From NCBI RefSeq assembly GCF_003334785.1, contig NZ_QOWV01000010.1: 64,000 nucleotides of DNA. One strand, 5' to 3'. The DNA is from Escherichia coli. Its GTDB lineage: Bacteria; Pseudomonadota; Gammaproteobacteria; Enterobacterales; Enterobacteriaceae. Positions 42,302 to 49,706 of this stretch are shown piece after piece; position 1 is the stretch's first letter; each line of letters starts with the position of its first letter. The notes below the pieces were generated by a model that was not told the DNA's origin, did not search any database, and was given only the letters and a program-made list of their open reading frames with translations. The position numbers and the translations under genes are program-made.

Positions 42302-43207
42302 ATGCGTCGAACGTTTATCAAAAAAGAAGGCGTCGTCATCACGACGCTGGCCCGTTATTTGTTGGGTGAAAAGTGCGGTAATCGATTGAAAACCATAGAT
42401 GAGCTGGCAAATGAATGCCGTTCATCCGTTGGCCTGACGCAGGCCGCGTTGAAAACGCTGGAATCAAGCGGAGCGATACGGATTGAACGCCGTGGGCGCA
42501 ATGGCAGTTATCTGGTCGAGATGGATAACAAAGCATTGCTGACTCATGTGGATATCAACAACGTGGTATGTGCAATGCCCTTGCCCTATACCCGTTTGTA
42601 CGAAGGCCTGGCGAGCGGATTGAAAGCCCAGTTTGATGGCATTCCTTTTTACTATGCGCACATGCGTGGCGCGGATATTCGCGTGGAGTGTCTGCTTAAT
42701 GGCGTGTATGACATGGCGGTGGTTTCGCGACTAGCGGCGGAAAGTTATCTCACGCAAAAAGGCTTATGCCTCGCGCTGGAGTTGGGGCCGCACACCTACG
42801 TTGGCGAGCACCAGTTGATTTGCCGTAAAGGCGAGTCCGCAAACGTGAAGCGCGTGGGGCTGGATAACCGTTCGGCGGATCAGAAAATCATGACCGATGT
42901 TTTTTTTGGCGGTAGTGATGTGGAACGAGTCGATCTCTCTTATCACGAGAGTTTACAACGCATTGTTAAAGGCGATGTCGATGCGGTGATCTGGAACGTG
43001 GTGGCGGAAAACGAACTGACCATGCTGGGATTAGAGGCGACGCCGCTCACAGACGATCCGCGATTTTTACAGGCCACCGAAGCCGTGGTCCTGACGCGAG
43101 TCGATGATTACCCAATGCAACAACTGCTGCGTGCCGTTGTAGATAAACACGCCCTGCTCGCCCATCAACAACGGGTAGTGAGTGGGGAACAGGAACCGAG
43201 TTATTAA
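42302..43207 (+). CDS. yhfZ: YhfZ, putative transcriptional regulator (N-terminal HTH-like, C-terminal ligand-binding-like domain)
   Basis: 301-aa ORF recognised as YhfZ; first gene of the yhf cluster. Confidence 0.8.
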   Translation: MRRTFIKKEGVVITTLARYLLGEKCGNRLKTIDELANECRSSVGLTQAALKTLESSGAIRIERRGRNGSYLVEMDNKALLTHVDINNVVCAMPLPYTRLYEGLASGLKAQFDGIPFYYAHMRGADIRVECLLNGVYDMAVVSRLAAESYLTQKGLCLALELGPHTYVGEHQLICRKGESANVKRVGLDNRSADQKIMTDVFFGGSDVERVDLSYHESLQRIVKGDVDAVIWNVVAENELTMLGLEATPLTDDPRFLQATEAVVLTRVDDYPMQQLLRAVVDKHALLAHQQRVVSGEQEPSY

Positions 43208-43223
43208 ACGAAAGGCATCTGAT

Positions 43224-43586
43224 ATGGAAACCAGACTCAACCTGCTTTGCGAGGCAGGCGTTATTGATAAGGACATCTGCAAAGGCATGATGCAGGTCGT
43301 CAACGTACTGGAAACAGAGTGCCATCTGCCGGTGCGCAGTGAGCAAGGAACGATGGCGATGACACATATGGCGAGTGCACTGATGCGCAGTCGCCGTGGT
43401 GAAGAAATAGAGCCGCTGGATAACGAGTTGCTGGCAGAACTGGCGCAATCCAGCCACTGGCAAGCCGTTGTGCAATTGCATCAGGTGTTGTTGAAGGAAT
43501 TCGCACTGGAAGTTAACCCGTGTGAAGAAGGCTATTTGCTGGCCAACCTTTATGGATTATGGATGGCTGCTAACGAAGAGGTTTGA
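43224..43586 (+). CDS. yhfY: YhfY, small PRD-domain-like protein
   Basis: Start METRLNLLCEAGV (120 aa); longest ORF starts 42 nt earlier inside yhfZ. Confidence 0.75.
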   Translation: METRLNLLCEAGVIDKDICKGMMQVVNVLETECHLPVRSEQGTMAMTHMASALMRSRRGEEIEPLDNELLAELAQSSHWQAVVQLHQVLLKEFALEVNPCEEGYLLANLYGLWMAANEEV

Positions 43587-43664
43587 AGCTCCCGACAAAT
43601 CCACGTCGCACAACCTAAATATTCAAAAAAATGAATATTTAAGGAACAGAAACGAGGCAACAAG

Positions 43665-47293: not shown

Positions 47294-47304
47294 AAGGCAC
47301 GACT

Positions 47305-48609
47305 ATGGATCTGTATATTCAGATTATCGTGGTGGCGTGCCTGACGGGTATGACATCGCTTCTGGCGCATCGCTCGGCGGCTGTTTTTCATGACGGCATC
47401 CGCCCGATCCTGCCGCAACTGATTGAAGGCTATATGAACCGTCGCGAGGCGGGGAGTATCGCTTTTGGTCTGAGCATTGGTTTTGTGGCCTCGGTGGGGA
47501 TCTCTTTTACCCTGAAAACCGGGCTGCTCAACGCATGGTTACTCTTTCTTCCTACCGATATCCTCGGCGTCCTGGCGATAAACAGCCTGATGGCGTTTGG
47601 TCTTGGCGCTATCTGGGGCGTGTTGATCCTTACTTGCCTGTTGCCAGTAAACCAGCTGCTGACCGCGCTGCCGGTGGATGTATTAGGTAGCCTGGGGGAA
47701 TTAAGCTCGCCGGTGGTTTCAGCTTTTGCACTGTTCCCGCTGGTGGCGATTTTCTACCAGTTTGGCTGGAAGCAAAGTCTGATCGCCGCCGTGGTGGTAC
47801 TGATGACCCGTGTGGTAGTCGTGCGCTATTTCCCACATCTTAACCCTGAATCCATCGAAATCTTTATTGGCATGGTGATGCTGCTGGGGATCGCGATAAC
47901 TCACGACCTGCGTCATCGTGATGAAAATGACATTGATGCCAGCGGGCTTTCGGTGTTTGAAGAACGCACGTCACGGATTATCAAAAACTTACCCTATATC
48001 GCCATCGTGGGAGCATTGATTGCCGCCGTTGCCAGCATGAAGATTTTTGCTGGCAGTGAAGTGTCGATCTTCACACTGGAGAAAGCATATTCCGCAGGCG
48101 TAACGCCGGAACAATCGCAAACGCTGATTAATCAGGCGGCTCTGGCAGAATTTATGCGCGGACTGGGGTTTGTGCCGTTGATTGCCACCACCGCGTTAGC
48201 AACGGGTGTGTATGCAGTTGCGGGCTTTACCTTTGTTTATGCGGTGGGCTATCTCTCGCCGAATCCGATGGTTGCAGCGGTATTAGGCGCAGTGGTTATT
48301 TCGGCGGAAGTCTTGCTGCTTCGTTCGATCGGCAAATGGCTGGGACGCTACCCGTCGGTGCGTAATGCGTCGGATAACATCCGTAACGCCATGAATATGC
48401 TGATGGAAGTGGCGCTGCTGGTCGGTTCGATTTTCGCAGCAATTAAGATGGCGGGTTATACCGGATTCTCTATCGCGGTTGCCATTTACTTCCTCAACGA
48501 ATCCCTGGGCCGTCCGGTACAGAAAATGGCGGCACCGGTCGTGGCAGTAATGATCACCGGTATTCTGCTGAATGTTCTTTACTGGCTTGGCCTGTTCGTT
48601 CCGGCTTAA
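47305..48609 (+). CDS. yhfT: YhfT, polytopic inner-membrane protein (putative transporter)
   Basis: 434-aa ORF, highly hydrophobic. Confidence 0.8.
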   Translation: MDLYIQIIVVACLTGMTSLLAHRSAAVFHDGIRPILPQLIEGYMNRREAGSIAFGLSIGFVASVGISFTLKTGLLNAWLLFLPTDILGVLAINSLMAFGLGAIWGVLILTCLLPVNQLLTALPVDVLGSLGELSSPVVSAFALFPLVAIFYQFGWKQSLIAAVVVLMTRVVVVRYFPHLNPESIEIFIGMVMLLGIAITHDLRHRDENDIDASGLSVFEERTSRIIKNLPYIAIVGALIAAVASMKIFAGSEVSIFTLEKAYSAGVTPEQSQTLINQAALAEFMRGLGFVPLIATTALATGVYAVAGFTFVYAVGYLSPNPMVAAVLGAVVISAEVLLLRSIGKWLGRYPSVRNASDNIRNAMNMLMEVALLVGSIFAAIKMAGYTGFSIAVAIYFLNESLGRPVQKMAAPVVAVMITGILLNVLYWLGLFVPA

Positions 48610-48620
48610 GGAAGGCACCT

Positions 48621-49706
48621 ATGAAGACGTTTCCTCTGCAAAGCCTGACGATTATTGAGGCGCAGCAAAAGCAGTTTGCGCTGGTGGATAGCATTTGTCG
48701 CCATTTCCCCGGCAGCGAGTTTCTTACTGGCGGTGATTTAGGCTTAACGCCAGGACTGAATCAACCGCGCGTTACCCAGCGTGTGGAACAGGTGCTGGCT
48801 GATGCATTTCACGCACAGGCTGCGGCGCTGGTGCAGGGCGCGGGGACTGGCGCGATTCGCGCCGGGCTGGCGGCTTTGCTCAAACCGGGGCAGCGTCTTC
48901 TGGTGCATGACGCGCCTGTTTACCCGACGACACGGGTTATTATTGAGCAGATGGGGCTGACGCTTATTACTGTTGATTTCAATGACCTGTCGGCACTGAA
49001 GCAGGTCGTCGACGAGCAACAACCGGATGCGGCGCTGGTGCAGCATACGCGCCAGCAGCCGCAGGACAGCTACGTGCTGGCAGATGTGCTGGCAACGTTG
49101 CGCGCGGCAGGTGTTCCAGCGTTAACCGATGACAACTATGCGGTGATGAAGGTGGCTCGAATCGGCTGTGAATGCGGCGCGAATGTCTCGACATTTTCCT
49201 GCTTCAAGCTATTTGGGCCAGAGGGTGTTGGTGCAGTGGTCGGCGATGCTGATGTTATCAACCGTATTCGCGCCACGCTTTACTCCGGCGGTAGCCAGAT
49301 CCAGGGCGCACAGGCGCTGGAAGTATTGCGTGGTCTGGTGTTTGCGCCAGTGATGCACGCGGTGCAGGCAGGGGTATCTGAACGGTTGCTGGCTTTGCTT
49401 AACGGTGGTGCGGTGCCGGAAGTGAAAAGCGCGGTGATTGCTAATGCGCAGTCGAAGGTGTTGATTGTCGAGTTTCATCAGCCGATTGCCGCCAGAGTGC
49501 TGGAAGAGGCGCAAAAGCGCGGTGCCTTGCCTTACCCGGTGGGTGCAGAGTCGAAATATGAAATCCCGCCGCTCTTTTATCGCCTTTCCGGAACGTTTCG
49601 CCAGGCGAATCCACAATCAGAACATTGTGCGATTCGCATTAACCCGAATCGCAGCGGTGAAGAGACGGTGCTGCGGATTTTGCGTGAGAGTATTGCCAGT
49701 ATTTAA
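48621..49706 (+). CDS. yhfS: YhfS, PLP-dependent transferase-like protein
   Basis: 361-aa ORF recognised as YhfS; last gene of cluster. Confidence 0.8.
   Translation: MKTFPLQSLTIIEAQQKQFALVDSICRHFPGSEFLTGGDLGLTPGLNQPRVTQRVEQVLADAFHAQAAALVQGAGTGAIRAGLAALLKPGQRLLVHDAPVYPTTRVIIEQMGLTLITVDFNDLSALKQVVDEQQPDAALVQHTRQQPQDSYVLADVLATLRAAGVPALTDDNYAVMKVARIGCECGANVSTFSCFKLFGPEGVGAVVGDADVINRIRATLYSGGSQIQGAQALEVLRGLVFAPVMHAVQAGVSERLLALLNGGAVPEVKSAVIANAQSKVLIVEFHQPIAARVLEEAQKRGALPYPVGAESKYEIPPLFYRLSGTFRQANPQSEHCAIRINPNRSGEETVLRILRESIASI

Follow-up and report, generated by a model that had tools for sequence, protein, structure and literature searches.

The eight genes yhfZ to yhfS of Escherichia coli appear to form a self-contained, horizontally mobile catabolic module composed of two sub-modules. 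Based on sequence comparison, we propose that the module would take up, under CRP and YhfZ control and possibly in a PTS-like manner, a cyclic phosphorylated compound of the sugar-amino-acid type, open its ring and degrade it by PLP-dependent steps. The model as a whole is tentative, and we give it a probability of about 0.45.

The first sub-module, for uptake and ring opening, would comprise the permease YhfT, its partner YhfU, the PRD protein YhfY and the hydrolase Php. The second, the enzymatic core, would comprise YhfX, YhfW, which could be a phosphotransferase or mutase of the phosphopentomutase type, and YhfS. In the proposed route, YhfT and YhfU would import a cyclic ester or amide, of the lactone or lactam type, that is part alpha-amino acid and part sugar- or polyol-like. 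The substrate would be phosphorylated, possibly during uptake, with the phosphoryl group passing from HPr to Cys52 of YhfU. The ring would be opened by Php and the phosphate repositioned by YhfW. YhfX, as a racemase/epimerase or an aldolase/dehydratase, and YhfS, as an aminotransferase or lyase, would remove or transform the amino group, and the products would enter central metabolism.

The yhfZ-yhfS gene set

The window, which is the whole stretch of 64,000 nucleotides that was analysed, contains eight intact ORFs of the cluster, all on the + strand. The gene yhfZ (42302-43207) encodes a regulator in which HTH_41 is combined with a ligand-binding-type domain, YhfZ_C, and the product of yhfY (43224-43586) is a single PRD domain that stands alone. 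A fold-type III PLP enzyme of the YhfX family (Ala_racemase_N and YhfX-like_C) is encoded by yhfX (43665-44828), and a phosphopentomutase-type metalloenzyme of the PRK12383 family (Pfam Metalloenzyme) by yhfW (44828-46054). The product of php (46051-46929) is a binuclear-metal amidohydrolase of the PTE family, and that of yhfU (46940-47293) is a DUF2620 protein with a predicted RpiB/LacAB-like fold. The last two genes are yhfT (47305-48609), for a polytopic membrane protein of the YhfT family that is presumed to be a permease, and yhfS (48621-49706), for a fold-type I PLP enzyme (Aminotran_1_2/Cys_Met_Meta_PP and YhfS-like_C). The junctions measure, from yhfZ to yhfS, +16, +78, -1 (TAATG), -4 (ATGA), +10, +11 and +11 nt; yhfW is translationally coupled to yhfX, and nucleotide 44828 is common to both ORFs. 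The first-pass annotation had described these co-directional ORFs at 42302-49706 and the tight junctions from yhfX to yhfS, both of which are confirmed, and the enzyme classes that it named agree with the Pfam/NCBIfam domain searches.

The cluster is a genuine, previously annotated E. coli gene set. Many RefSeq E. coli chromosomes are 100% identical over the region and carry the yhfZ-yhfS names, and at least 80% of the query is covered in 5060 of the 5426 complete E. coli genomes. Rearranged copies occur in some strains, among them one that encodes a 498-aa YhfX/YhfS-C fusion protein (P0004). No pathway or function for the yhf genes was found in the searchable literature, as the first-pass annotation had presumed, and yhfW was still "uncharacterized" in a paper of January 2026.

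Enzymes of the cluster

The catalytic residues of the cluster enzymes are all conserved across loci. YhfX, the most constant enzyme of the module, matches Pfam Ala_racemase_N (6.6e-22) and has an invariant K61; its structure (PDB 4KBX) was deposited as 'uncharacterized'. By family profile, alanine racemases (4e-7) are roughly as remote as D-threonine or D-3-hydroxyaspartate aldolases (2e-4 to 1e-3), and YhfX may be a racemase or, alternatively, an aldolase or dehydratase. YhfS, also deposited as 'uncharacterized' (PDB 4J8L), has O-succinylhomoserine sulfhydrylase as its next match (3e-6) and is remotely like the Cys/Met-metabolism (gamma) family. Its K196 and D170 are invariant. YhfS weakly matches TIGR03576, and a YhfS homologue in another locus (L096) weakly matches Pfam SelA.

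YhfW matches PRK12383 with 741.9 bits. Its conserved residues are D10, D83, T/S84, H88, D298, H302, D338, H339 and H350, and the ADHGNDPT motif noted in the first pass is present at residue 337. The accompanying description of YhfW as a DeoB-like phosphomutase holds for these catalytic motifs, but not for membership of the DeoB equivalog. The adjacency of yhfX and yhfW is kept in 55 of 56 loci, and yhfW is missing from many clusters. Php (PRK09875, 655 bits; PDB 1BF6 and 4LEF) has the expected HEHLH motif at residue 12, and H12, H14, E125, H158, H186 and D243 are invariant. Its closest characterised relatives include phospho-sugar lactonases. The best match of the cluster-linked PTEs, in all taxa, is PRK09875 and not the phospho-furanose lactonase model.

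Conservation and variants of the module

A gene-neighbourhood comparison of about 95 loci, which the first-pass annotation had suggested, found the module to be widely kept. About 80 gamma-proteobacterial loci have the set, at unrelated chromosomal sites. Distant loci (25-61% GC) keep all eight families in the order Z-PRD-DUF2620-YhfT-PTE-YhfS-YhfX-Metalloenzyme. Because the set is conserved and its order shuffled across distant taxa, the eight genes can be regarded as one functional, catabolic-looking unit. One of the distant loci probably uses genetic code 4.

Two loci, L087 and L088, retain YhfZ and the YhfS-YhfX-YhfW block but lack the PRD, DUF2620, YhfT and PTE genes. In the place of these stand a kinase-like gene, an NCS1 permease and an ATP-dependent, lactamase-like pair, hydantoinase A/B, that resembles caprolactamase. 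In L092, YhfX is flanked by a ROK kinase and an APC amino-acid permease, and in L082 a NagB gene follows the cluster.

YhfU, YhfT and a possible link to the PTS

YhfU directly precedes YhfT in 78 of 81 loci, with a usual gap of 10-11 nt. Each of the two proteins occurs in two sequence types, and the types always go together: 47 loci have one combination, 33 have the other, and no locus is mixed. This holds even at loci such as L007, whose enzymes share 81-91% identity with those of E. coli. The two genes thus appear to be exchanged together, with YhfU as a putative obligate partner of YhfT. YhfU has an invariant Cys52 within a GxCxTGxGxA loop, and structure prediction gives an RpiB-like fold in which this cysteine lies in the glycine-rich loop at a helix N-terminus. 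The predicted fold of YhfT matched none of the solved structures.

The PRD protein is present alongside YhfU/YhfT and is missing from both variants that lack them. No kinase gene is present inside clusters of the YhfU/YhfT type, and both YhfU/YhfT-less variants have kinases. In one locus (L084), Php and the PRD are fused into one protein of 416 aa, and an HPr-like ORF adjoins the cluster. The invariant His48 of the PRD protein, this fusion with its HPr-like neighbour and the lack of a kinase make a PTS link plausible, as had been suggested in the first pass.

These proteins could also be read as the machinery for a pentose- or nucleoside-derived amino compound. YhfW would then be a true phosphopentomutase (of the ribose-1-P to ribose-5-P type), YhfU a soluble RpiB-type pentose-phosphate isomerase, Php a phospho-pentonolactonase and YhfT an ordinary secondary carrier, and the PLP enzymes would act on a pentose-joined amino acid, e.g. 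an S-/N-ribosylated amino acid or an amino-pentonate. We consider this unlikely. YhfU has 117 aa while RpiB has about 150, the profile alignment between them is a 27-residue stretch (E 0.013; Pfam LacAB_rpiB 0.16), and the phosphate-binding C-terminal helix of RpiB would have no counterpart in the shorter protein. Moreover, the positional tie of YhfU to the membrane protein YhfT, and their co-exchange, are unexpected for a free isomerase, YhfW falls below the DeoB equivalog cutoffs and many clusters do without yhfW.

Putative regulatory sites

YhfZ matches the NCBIfam model YhfZ_full (373.6 bits, cutoff 260), and the structure of its C-terminal domain, 2OZZ, is in the PDB as a hypothetical protein. 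Three operator-like palindromes were read from the sequence. O1 (42252..42273) is TATCTTCA-N6-TGAAGATA, with the core TTCA-N6-TGAA at 42256-42269. O2 (42275..42298) is AAATATTCA-N6-TGAAAATTT and ends 3 nt before the yhfZ ATG. O3 (43617..43640), in the yhfY-yhfX gap, is the perfect palindrome AAATATTCA-N6-TGAATATTT, an exact match for which 0.02 are expected by chance. In many genera, O2 is conserved 20-23 nt before yhfZ, and a second site recurs 24 nt upstream of the proximal one. ATTCA-N6-TGAA stands upstream of yhfX in 45 loci, and of its 116 matches in 1.55 Mb, 107 are found no more than 200 nt upstream of yhfZ, yhfX or yhfY. Distant loci have related TACA-N6-TGTA or TTCA-N6-TGAA palindromes before cluster genes or a YhfZ paralogue. 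YhfZ probably binds such T(T/A)CA-N6-TG(A/T)A palindromes before yhfZ and yhfX. Given the conserved palindrome within the 78-nt yhfY-yhfX gap, Enterobacterales probably control the cluster at two points, one for yhfZY and the other for yhfXW-php-yhfUTS; a single promoter need not be assumed. This refines the tightly coupled operon of the first-pass annotation.

A CRP-like half-site, TGTGA-N6-TCGCC (42211..42226, + strand), is located 91 nt upstream of the yhfZ ATG. Of 71 loci, 49 have the pattern [TC]GTGA-N6-TCnC at a fixed 87-91 nt from the start of yhfZ despite unrelated flanks, against a background of 0.057 per kb; catabolite control is the likeliest reading of this putative site. YhfY matches Pfam PRD weakly (9.1e-4) and TIGR03582, the EF_0829-type PRD, at 1.6e-6, which is below the family cutoff; its homologues in distant loci carry PF00874. 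At least 97% of 80 sequences have His48, and YhfY probably signals the PTS phosphorylation state through this residue to YhfZ and/or Php.

Flanking elements and the frl neighbourhood

The gap between trpS and the cluster contains a REP/BIME repeat (42040..42140), identified from a weak Rfam naRNA4 (REP-derived) match at 42040-42076 and from reading of the sequence; it is outside the yhf system. The region upstream of yhfZ is a BIME in a published list (PMC2965389), and because of this repeat the region finds more than 200,000 places by megablast. The terminator that had been reported to precede the cluster is present (42159..42180, + strand; a 9-pair stem, then a T-run). However, it follows the REP/BIME element behind trpS and therefore ends trpS rather than forming part of the cluster, which it shields from upstream transcription. 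A REP-type repeat (49793..49852) lies between yhfS and frlR. We looked for a consensus sigma-70 promoter for the cluster and for a canonical intrinsic terminator 3' of yhfS and found neither.

As described in the first pass, the cluster is convergent with frl in E. coli, as seen from the orientation of frlR. The further proposal that this adjacency hints at the substrate is not supported. Among 81 loci, only two, those of E. coli and Atlantibacter, have adjoining frl genes, which follow yhfS in the former and precede yhfZ in the latter; these opposite sides indicate independent insertions. Most Enterobacteriaceae, including Citrobacter, Klebsiella, Trabulsiella, Cedecea and cryptic Escherichia lineages, have trpS-[yhf]-cysG without frl genes. 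Since the adjacency is not conserved, it gives no substrate clue. A glycated (Amadori or Heyns) amino acid akin to fructoselysine, degraded by yhf working with frl, is thus improbable as the substrate, in spite of the two adjacent loci, of the convergence in E. coli and of the ROK sugar kinase and APC permease (the FrlA transporter class) that flank the YhfX homologue of L092. Domain searches of the cluster found no homologues of the deglycase, SIS, PfkB or epimerase proteins. In addition, the PLP mechanism needs a free amine, and glycation of the alpha-amine leaves none.

A phosphorylated polyol or sugar in non-cyclic ester linkage to an aminoacyl group, e.g. a D-alanyl-glycerol- or -ribitol-phosphate fragment of teichoic acid, is in our view a very improbable substrate. 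Here, Php would be an esterase, YhfX an alanine-type racemase and YhfS an aminotransferase, and YhfW and YhfU would act on the polyol or pentose phosphate. The PTE family includes carboxylesterases, among solved structures, alanine racemases are nearest to the YhfX profile (4e-7), YhfS has an Aminotran_1_2 domain and the cluster has phospho-mutase and RpiB-like components. This proposal, which comes from chemical reasoning, leaves the exchange of Php for an ATP-dependent lactamase/hydantoinase pair and an NCS1 permease unexplained. That the cluster is cryptic or decaying in E. coli, with no current role and genes no longer acting together, would fit the rearranged copies and the lack of a phenotype or inducing condition in the literature and of a consensus promoter, but is scarcely credible given its eight intact ORFs, its presence in most complete E. 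coli genomes, its conserved catalytic residues and regulatory sites across genera and its tight translational coupling.

Comparison with known systems

Salmonella reportedly has a D-glucosaminate pathway, dgaABCDEF, which resembles the proposed yhf route in the PTS uptake, with phosphorylation, of a sugar-like alpha-amino acid. The phosphorylated amino-aldonate is deaminated by a fold-type I PLP enzyme, DgaE (SelA-like), paralleled in yhf by the weak SelA/TIGR03576 matches of YhfS-type proteins. However, dga relies on an EIIABCD of the mannose family and on a sigma-54 activator, and has no PTE hydrolase, fold-type III PLP enzyme, phosphomutase, PRD protein or YhfT/YhfU. In TIGRFAM descriptions, the EF_0829/AHA_3910-type cluster has the TIGR03582 PRD protein, Gly_rich_SFCGS, DUF4310/4311/4312, an amidohydrolase and a SelA-like PLP enzyme. 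Common to it and yhf are a stand-alone PRD, a Cys-/Gly-rich protein of about 120 aa, membrane proteins, an amidohydrolase and a PLP enzyme. Gly_rich_SFCGS is matched by 6 of 21 DUF2620 proteins, but all matches are below family cutoffs, so the proteins are paralogous and not of the same families. A literature search on this cluster found nothing, and it is also functionally uncharacterised.

Php shares the (beta/alpha)8 binuclear-metal fold and the metal ligands of the phospho-furanose lactonases (MS53_0025 type, NF045706) and other PTE-like lactonases. Its match to NF045706 (2.6e-29) scores 102 bits against a cutoff of 630, and the cluster-linked PTEs of all taxa form their own Php (PRK09875) clade. 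YhfW shares with DeoB a metal site of the alkaline-phosphatase type, the ADHGNDPT motif and a nucleophilic Thr/Ser within GGD(T/S)FxGHQE, and it matches solved phosphopentomutases at 3e-31. In contrast to DeoB, it is below the deoB model cutoffs (145.8 vs 341; 183.9 vs 256), belongs to a separate family and is coupled to a PLP enzyme, not to nucleoside phosphorylases. YhfY has the PRD, conserved histidine and dedicated uptake system of the PRD PTS regulators (BglG/LicT antiterminators, MtlR/LicR activators), and the fusion PRD of L084 weakly matches those of GlcT and LicT. However, YhfY, a single PRD of 120 aa, lacks an RNA- or DNA-binding domain; the HTH protein next to it, YhfZ, is encoded by a gene of its own, and where the PRD is part of a fusion its partner is the enzyme Php.

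The frlABCDR operon resembles yhf in being its E. coli neighbour and in acting on a sugar-amino-acid conjugate, fructoselysine, but none of the yhf proteins has a homologue among the Frl enzymes. The caprolactam, hydantoin and 5-oxoproline systems open a ring with HyuA/HyuB or CapA/CapB, after which a PLP aminotransferase acts. E. coli differs in having the ATP-independent Php, whereas L087 and L088 place a CapA/CapB-like pair (544 and 295 bits, equivalog cutoffs 1000) and the NCS1 permease upstream of YhfS-YhfX-YhfW, in the place of Php and YhfT/YhfU.

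A conserved gene module

The genes yhfZ-yhfY-yhfX-yhfW-php-yhfU-yhfT-yhfS (42302-49706, plus strand) form, with near certainty, one catabolic module. The eight ORFs proposed in the first-pass annotation are all intact, and the tight spacing described there was found again, with distances of +16, +78, -1 (TAATG), -4, +10, +11 and +11 from yhfZ to yhfS. The window is chromosomal E. coli DNA, and many RefSeq genomes match the 8-kb region at 100% identity; at least 80% of the query is covered in 5060 of 5426 complete E. coli genomes. In RefSeq, the gene order is trpS, the eight genes from yhfZ to yhfS, frlR and frlDCBA, the fructoselysine (frl) locus being convergent with the cluster. 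A 498-residue protein from a 77-kb E. coli contig, P0004, joins the YhfX domains to a C-terminal domain like that of YhfS, suggesting the loss of yhfW-php-yhfU-yhfT in one strain by a deletion that linked yhfX with yhfS.

The strong terminator said to precede the cluster does exist (42159-42180), but it comes after trpS and a REP/BIME element and thus insulates the cluster instead of belonging to it. REP/BIME-type repeats, with weak naRNA4 matches, lie on both sides of the cluster (42040-42140 and 49740-49852), and a G-rich palindromic element (ccctcgcccctttggggagagggttagggtgagggg, about 49749-49787) is located between yhfS and frlR. A canonical terminator was not found after yhfS. The Rfam scan at E ≤ 1 returned REP-type naRNA4 fragments only, with no riboswitch or RAT-like element, and a promoter search found no sigma-70 candidate that was convincing.

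With 606 clusters (50% identity, E ≤ 1e-3) in a set of 1.84 billion representatives, the YhfX family is a small one. When one genome was scanned for each GTDB species, 498 loci were obtained. The best 80 of these 498, which were used to compare gene context, come from Enterobacterales, Pasteurellaceae and Vibrionaceae; in them yhfY, yhfX, yhfU and yhfT are nearly always present, while the other genes are lost by lineage. Photorhabdus, Xenorhabdus and one Yersinia cluster type lack yhfW; a second Yersinia cluster type lacks php, yhfS and yhfZ; and Vibrio and Photobacterium lack yhfS. The flanking genes vary by genus, being unrelated genes for housekeeping or efflux, and the gamma-proteobacterial neighbours (AcrAB, Hmp, MnmE, a porin and a PanS-like protein) offered no clue to the substrate.

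More distant contexts were obtained from 12 single look-ups of YhfX relatives with 33-45% identity. The full set of eight families is found in five of these loci (L082, L084/L085, L093, L094 and L096), usually in the order Z-PRD-DUF2620-YhfT-PTE-YhfS-YhfX-Metalloenzyme, where PRD, DUF2620, PTE and Metalloenzyme are the homologues of YhfY, YhfU, Php and YhfW, respectively. Two loci, L083 and L090, have a partial set, and three were uninformative: in L086 a YhfX-like gene stands alone near MFS transporters, and the contigs of L089 and L091 are short. The set stays together although the gene order changes, which argues strongly for a single function. L083 comes from a low-GC organism in which UGA apparently encodes Trp, and its ORFs are correct only under that reading; it also has a 620-residue fusion (10161-12023) of a YhfW-type metalloenzyme to an esterase domain.

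Some loci depart from the common layout. Three Yersinia species have two partial clusters at separate sites (Y. frederiksenii, L047/L065; Y. alsatica, L049/L062; Y. vastinensis, L042/L066), one with Z-Y-X-php-U-T and the other with Y-X-W-U-T adjoining acrAB; yhfS is in neither, and the second cluster of Y. frederiksenii (L065) is reduced to Y-X-W, having lost U and T. In two Enterobacter-like loci lacking yhfS, same-strand phosphatase genes follow the cluster: a PhoC-type acid phosphatase and an e(P4) 5'-nucleotidase in L017 (14980-16680), and a HAD-IB phosphatase in L072 (15580-16257). They do not recur and may be a coincidence. The yhfT gene appears split into two ORFs in Citrobacter koseri NCTC10786 (L008), where several flanking genes also appear split, and in Trabulsiella odontotermitis (L015), which indicates assembly frameshifts or sequencing errors.

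Two probable sub-modules

The genes yhfX and yhfW, whose stop and start codons overlap in E. coli, stand side by side in 55 of 56 loci. In L087 and L088, PRD, DUF2620, YhfT and PTE are all missing, while YhfZ and a YhfS-YhfX-YhfW block are kept; the substitutes are an NCS1 permease, a small kinase-like protein and a hydantoinase A/B pair, which matches the caprolactamase CapA/CapB best. The minimal variant, L092, has a ROK regulator, a ROK kinase, which is closest, weakly, to NanK and glucokinases, and an APC amino-acid permease around the YhfX homologue. In L084/L085 (7717-8967), Php carries a C-terminal PRD domain in a fusion of 416 amino acids, and in L082 a NagB gene lies directly 3' of the cluster.

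Taken together, these variants, fusions and neighbours point to a cluster that is likely composed of two sub-modules. Php would open a ring by hydrolysis and could be replaced by an ATP-dependent lactamase, while YhfT, YhfU and the PRD protein would make an uptake unit, replaceable by an ordinary permease and a kinase. The same patterns suggest a substrate that is both amino-acid-like and sugar-like, and a phosphorylated intermediate. At 13411-21164, L096 also encodes a second YhfZ paralogue; downstream of it come genes for a HisJ-type PHP phosphatase, a sigma-54 activator and a hydantoinase A/B set. Here too, a YhfZ-family regulator is associated with ATP-dependent ring-opening enzymes.

The enzymes and the PRD protein

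The enzyme and domain types named in the first-pass annotation agree with the domain content found here. YhfW has all the metal ligands of phosphopentomutase, the Thr/Ser nucleophile and, at residue 337, the ADHGNDPT motif that had been reported. Php has the reported HEHLH motif at residue 12 and is a binuclear-metal hydrolase of the PTE family (PF02126, 2e-147), with its metal ligands H12, H14, E125, H158, H186 and D243 conserved at 97% or more in 80 sequences. YhfU has a predicted RpiB-type fold. The main alternative is that YhfW, YhfU and Php are true enzymes of pentose phosphates and that the compound they act on is ribosylated or an amino-pentose. We regard this as improbable. YhfW is below the curated DeoB cutoffs (TIGR01696, 145.8 against 341.2; PRK05362, 183.9 against 256) and falls in a family of its own, PRK12383 (741.9 against 254), and not in the DeoB equivalog. 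Php scores 102.4 bits in the phospho-furanose lactonase model NF045706, which has a cutoff of 630, and the PTEs of clusters elsewhere score 59-144; everywhere, cluster-linked PTEs form a Php clade separate from the characterised phospho-furanose lactonases. The idea that Php is equivalent to the Mycoplasma phospho-furanose lactonase was rejected on score and clade. YhfU does not have the full catalytic set of the RpiB/LacAB family: the E-value against Pfam LacAB_rpiB is 0.16, the C-terminus is about 30 residues shorter than that of RpiB, and hhalign aligned residues 35-61 only (C52=C66, T54=T68, E 0.013), an approximate result.

YhfX has an Ala_racemase_N barrel (PF01168, 6.6e-22) with an invariant PLP lysine, K61. 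It scores 28 bits against Orr, for which the cutoff is 480, and its family profile matches Alr (4e-7), D-Thr aldolase (2.4e-4) and D-3-hydroxyaspartate aldolase (1.2e-3). The counterpart of the GYGDG-type motif of Alr is Y[CF][YF]GGG[YH]Y, and the aligned Tyr is not fully conserved. As YhfX is about equally far from alanine racemases and from D-beta-hydroxy-amino-acid aldolases, a racemase activity is not established, and the firm label was dropped. YhfS is a fold-type I PLP enzyme (Aminotran_1_2, 9.5e-10; Cys_Met_Meta_PP, 9.2e-7) in which the Schiff-base lysine K196 and the PLP-N1 aspartate D170 are invariant. It remotely resembles gamma-family PLP enzymes and reached none of the equivalog models. 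YhfY of E. coli is a weak match to the Pfam PRD domain (9.1e-4), its homologues elsewhere carry PF00874, and His48 is invariant.

The YhfU-YhfT pair

In 78 of 81 loci yhfU immediately precedes yhfT, mostly at a spacing of 10-11 nt, and the three non-adjacent cases are artefacts of ORF calling or fragmentation. Both proteins occur as two divergent sequence types, in 47 and 33 loci, with no mixed pair. In Citrobacter sp. R56 (L007), YhfU and YhfT are 38% and 31% identical to those of E. coli, respectively, against 81-91% for the enzymes. The divergent type was also seen in Atlantibacter hermannii (L018) and Buttiauxella sp. B2 (L029); over the three loci the pair is 31-38% identical to E. coli and the surrounding enzymes are 62-91% identical. 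Types that never mix, and a divergent pair amid conserved enzymes, indicate that yhfU-yhfT is exchanged as a unit, and the replacement in these three loci looks like a cassette-like exchange of the transport pair.

The predicted model of YhfT (pLDDT 87.8) has no significant match among solved structures and could not be placed in a known EIIC fold or family; YhfT remains an orphan membrane protein. A PTS Enzyme II would have a cognate EIIA and receive phosphate from HPr. No EIIA domain was found in any yhf-type cluster examined, and an HPr-like ORF, scoring below its cutoff, adjoins one locus only (L084). YhfU has a single invariant cysteine, Cys52, which is a candidate for the phosphorylated residue of a small cytoplasmic EIIB.

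Predicted regulatory sites

The window has four palindromes with a TTCA-N6-TGAA core. Two, O1 (42252-42273) and O2 (42275-42298, 24 nt from O1), are before yhfZ, a third, O3 (43617-43640), is before yhfX, and the fourth is at 5116. Sites of the O1-O3 type are conserved across about 14 genera. The exact sequence ATTCA-N6-TGAA occurs 116 times in the 81 loci (1.55 Mb), and 107 of these copies are at most 200 nt upstream of yhfZ, of yhfX or, in Yersinia clusters without yhfZ, of yhfY. In Vibrio and Photobacterium, where yhfX is internal to a Z-Y-php-U-T-X-W operon, the palindrome is found before yhfZ only. The second YhfZ paralogue of L096 is also preceded by TTCA-N6-TGAA, and in distant low-GC loci TACA-N6-TGTA palindromes are upstream of cluster genes. 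Judged from sequence, the HTH of YhfZ is the obvious candidate to bind these palindromes, and O1-O3 are likely its operator. A CRP-like half-site, TGTGA-N6-TCGCC, is located at 42211-42226, 91 nt 5' of the yhfZ ATG, and in 49 of 71 loci [TC]GTGA-N6-TCnC occurs at a fixed 87-91 nt before the start of yhfZ. Such a predicted layout of palindromes and CRP-like site is what an inducible operon under catabolite control typically shows. For Enterobacterales, the arrangement of sites implies two control points and does not require a single transcript.

Relation to the frl locus

The adjacency to frl had been taken as a pointer to a related substrate, an argument that is not supported. The cluster is located between trpS and cysG-nirCDB, without frl, in Citrobacter, Klebsiella, Trabulsiella, Cedecea and cryptic lineages of Escherichia. 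Of the 81 loci, two are linked to frl, and the sides are opposite: in E. coli frl comes after yhfS, and in Atlantibacter it precedes yhfZ. No domain homologous to the FrlB deglycase, the FrlD kinase or the FrlC epimerase is found among the yhf proteins. The placements look like independent insertions at one locus, with no conserved functional linkage, and the adjacency was rejected as functional evidence since it is not conserved. Readings of the cluster as an Amadori pathway, a teichoic-ester pathway or a cryptic remnant are less likely than the pentose-phosphate alternative.

Discussion

Our reading is of a single catabolic module with two sub-modules, a YhfZ operator, a PTS-like step and a cyclic substrate class, and we give this picture as a whole a probability of about 0.45. 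The substrate would be a cyclic sugar-amino-acid, and its phosphorylation would be PTS-like, through Cys52 of YhfU; either assignment could be wrong. The ring would be opened by Php, or by an ATP-dependent lactamase, ahead of the conserved YhfS-YhfX-YhfW core. This logic, ring opening and then the core, narrows the candidate substrates to cyclic amino-acid or sugar-acid derivatives.

The yhf genes and their orphan status were already known, and the first-pass annotation brought no new fact; what is new here is a set of testable features from comparative analysis. Its statement that no role is established in E. coli is borne out by the open-access full-text literature, in which we found no biochemical or genetic characterisation, and no study of pathway, substrate or regulator, although a paper in a subscription journal could be missed. 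The yhf genes are mentioned in passing (operon tables, BIME, screens of knockouts or of overexpression, a pull-down), and in January 2026 yhfW was still among the 'uncharacterized or less studied' genes (PMC12924614). Crystal structures have been deposited for four of the proteins: the C-terminal domain of YhfZ (2OZZ), YhfX (4KBX), Php (1BF6 and 4LEF) and YhfS (4J8L). The PDB titles call YhfZ, YhfX and YhfS 'hypothetical' or 'uncharacterized' and Php a 'phosphotriesterase homology protein'. The cluster is among the larger intact operons of the E. coli K-12 type that still lack a function, with four crystallised proteins and a substrate for none. The comparison turns a list of domains into statements that can be tested, on a predicted operator (O1-O3) and on CRP control, and it names the invariant cysteine in the obligate YhfU-YhfT pair as a target for mutation and the PRD histidine as a candidate for HPr-dependent phosphorylation.

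A more far-reaching proposal, which is doubtful, is that YhfU and YhfT are a new PTS-linked uptake system, with an RpiB-fold phospho-cysteine carrier and a permease of unsolved fold; that YhfY senses it and controls YhfZ and Php; that the cluster degrades a cyclic sugar-amino-acid class for which no route has been described; and that the EF_0829/Gly_rich_SFCGS clusters are sister systems. If the pair is a new PTS-type transporter, it would add a family to a system thought to be well catalogued. If not, the result would still fill a gap in E. coli metabolism, one that may be relevant to life in the gut and in insects, as the cluster is present in Photorhabdus, Xenorhabdus, Yersinia, Providencia and Serratia. 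Compared with known systems, YhfT and YhfU are a component pair without a characterised relative, set in a cluster that looks like an inducible catabolic operon under PRD/PTS-type control.
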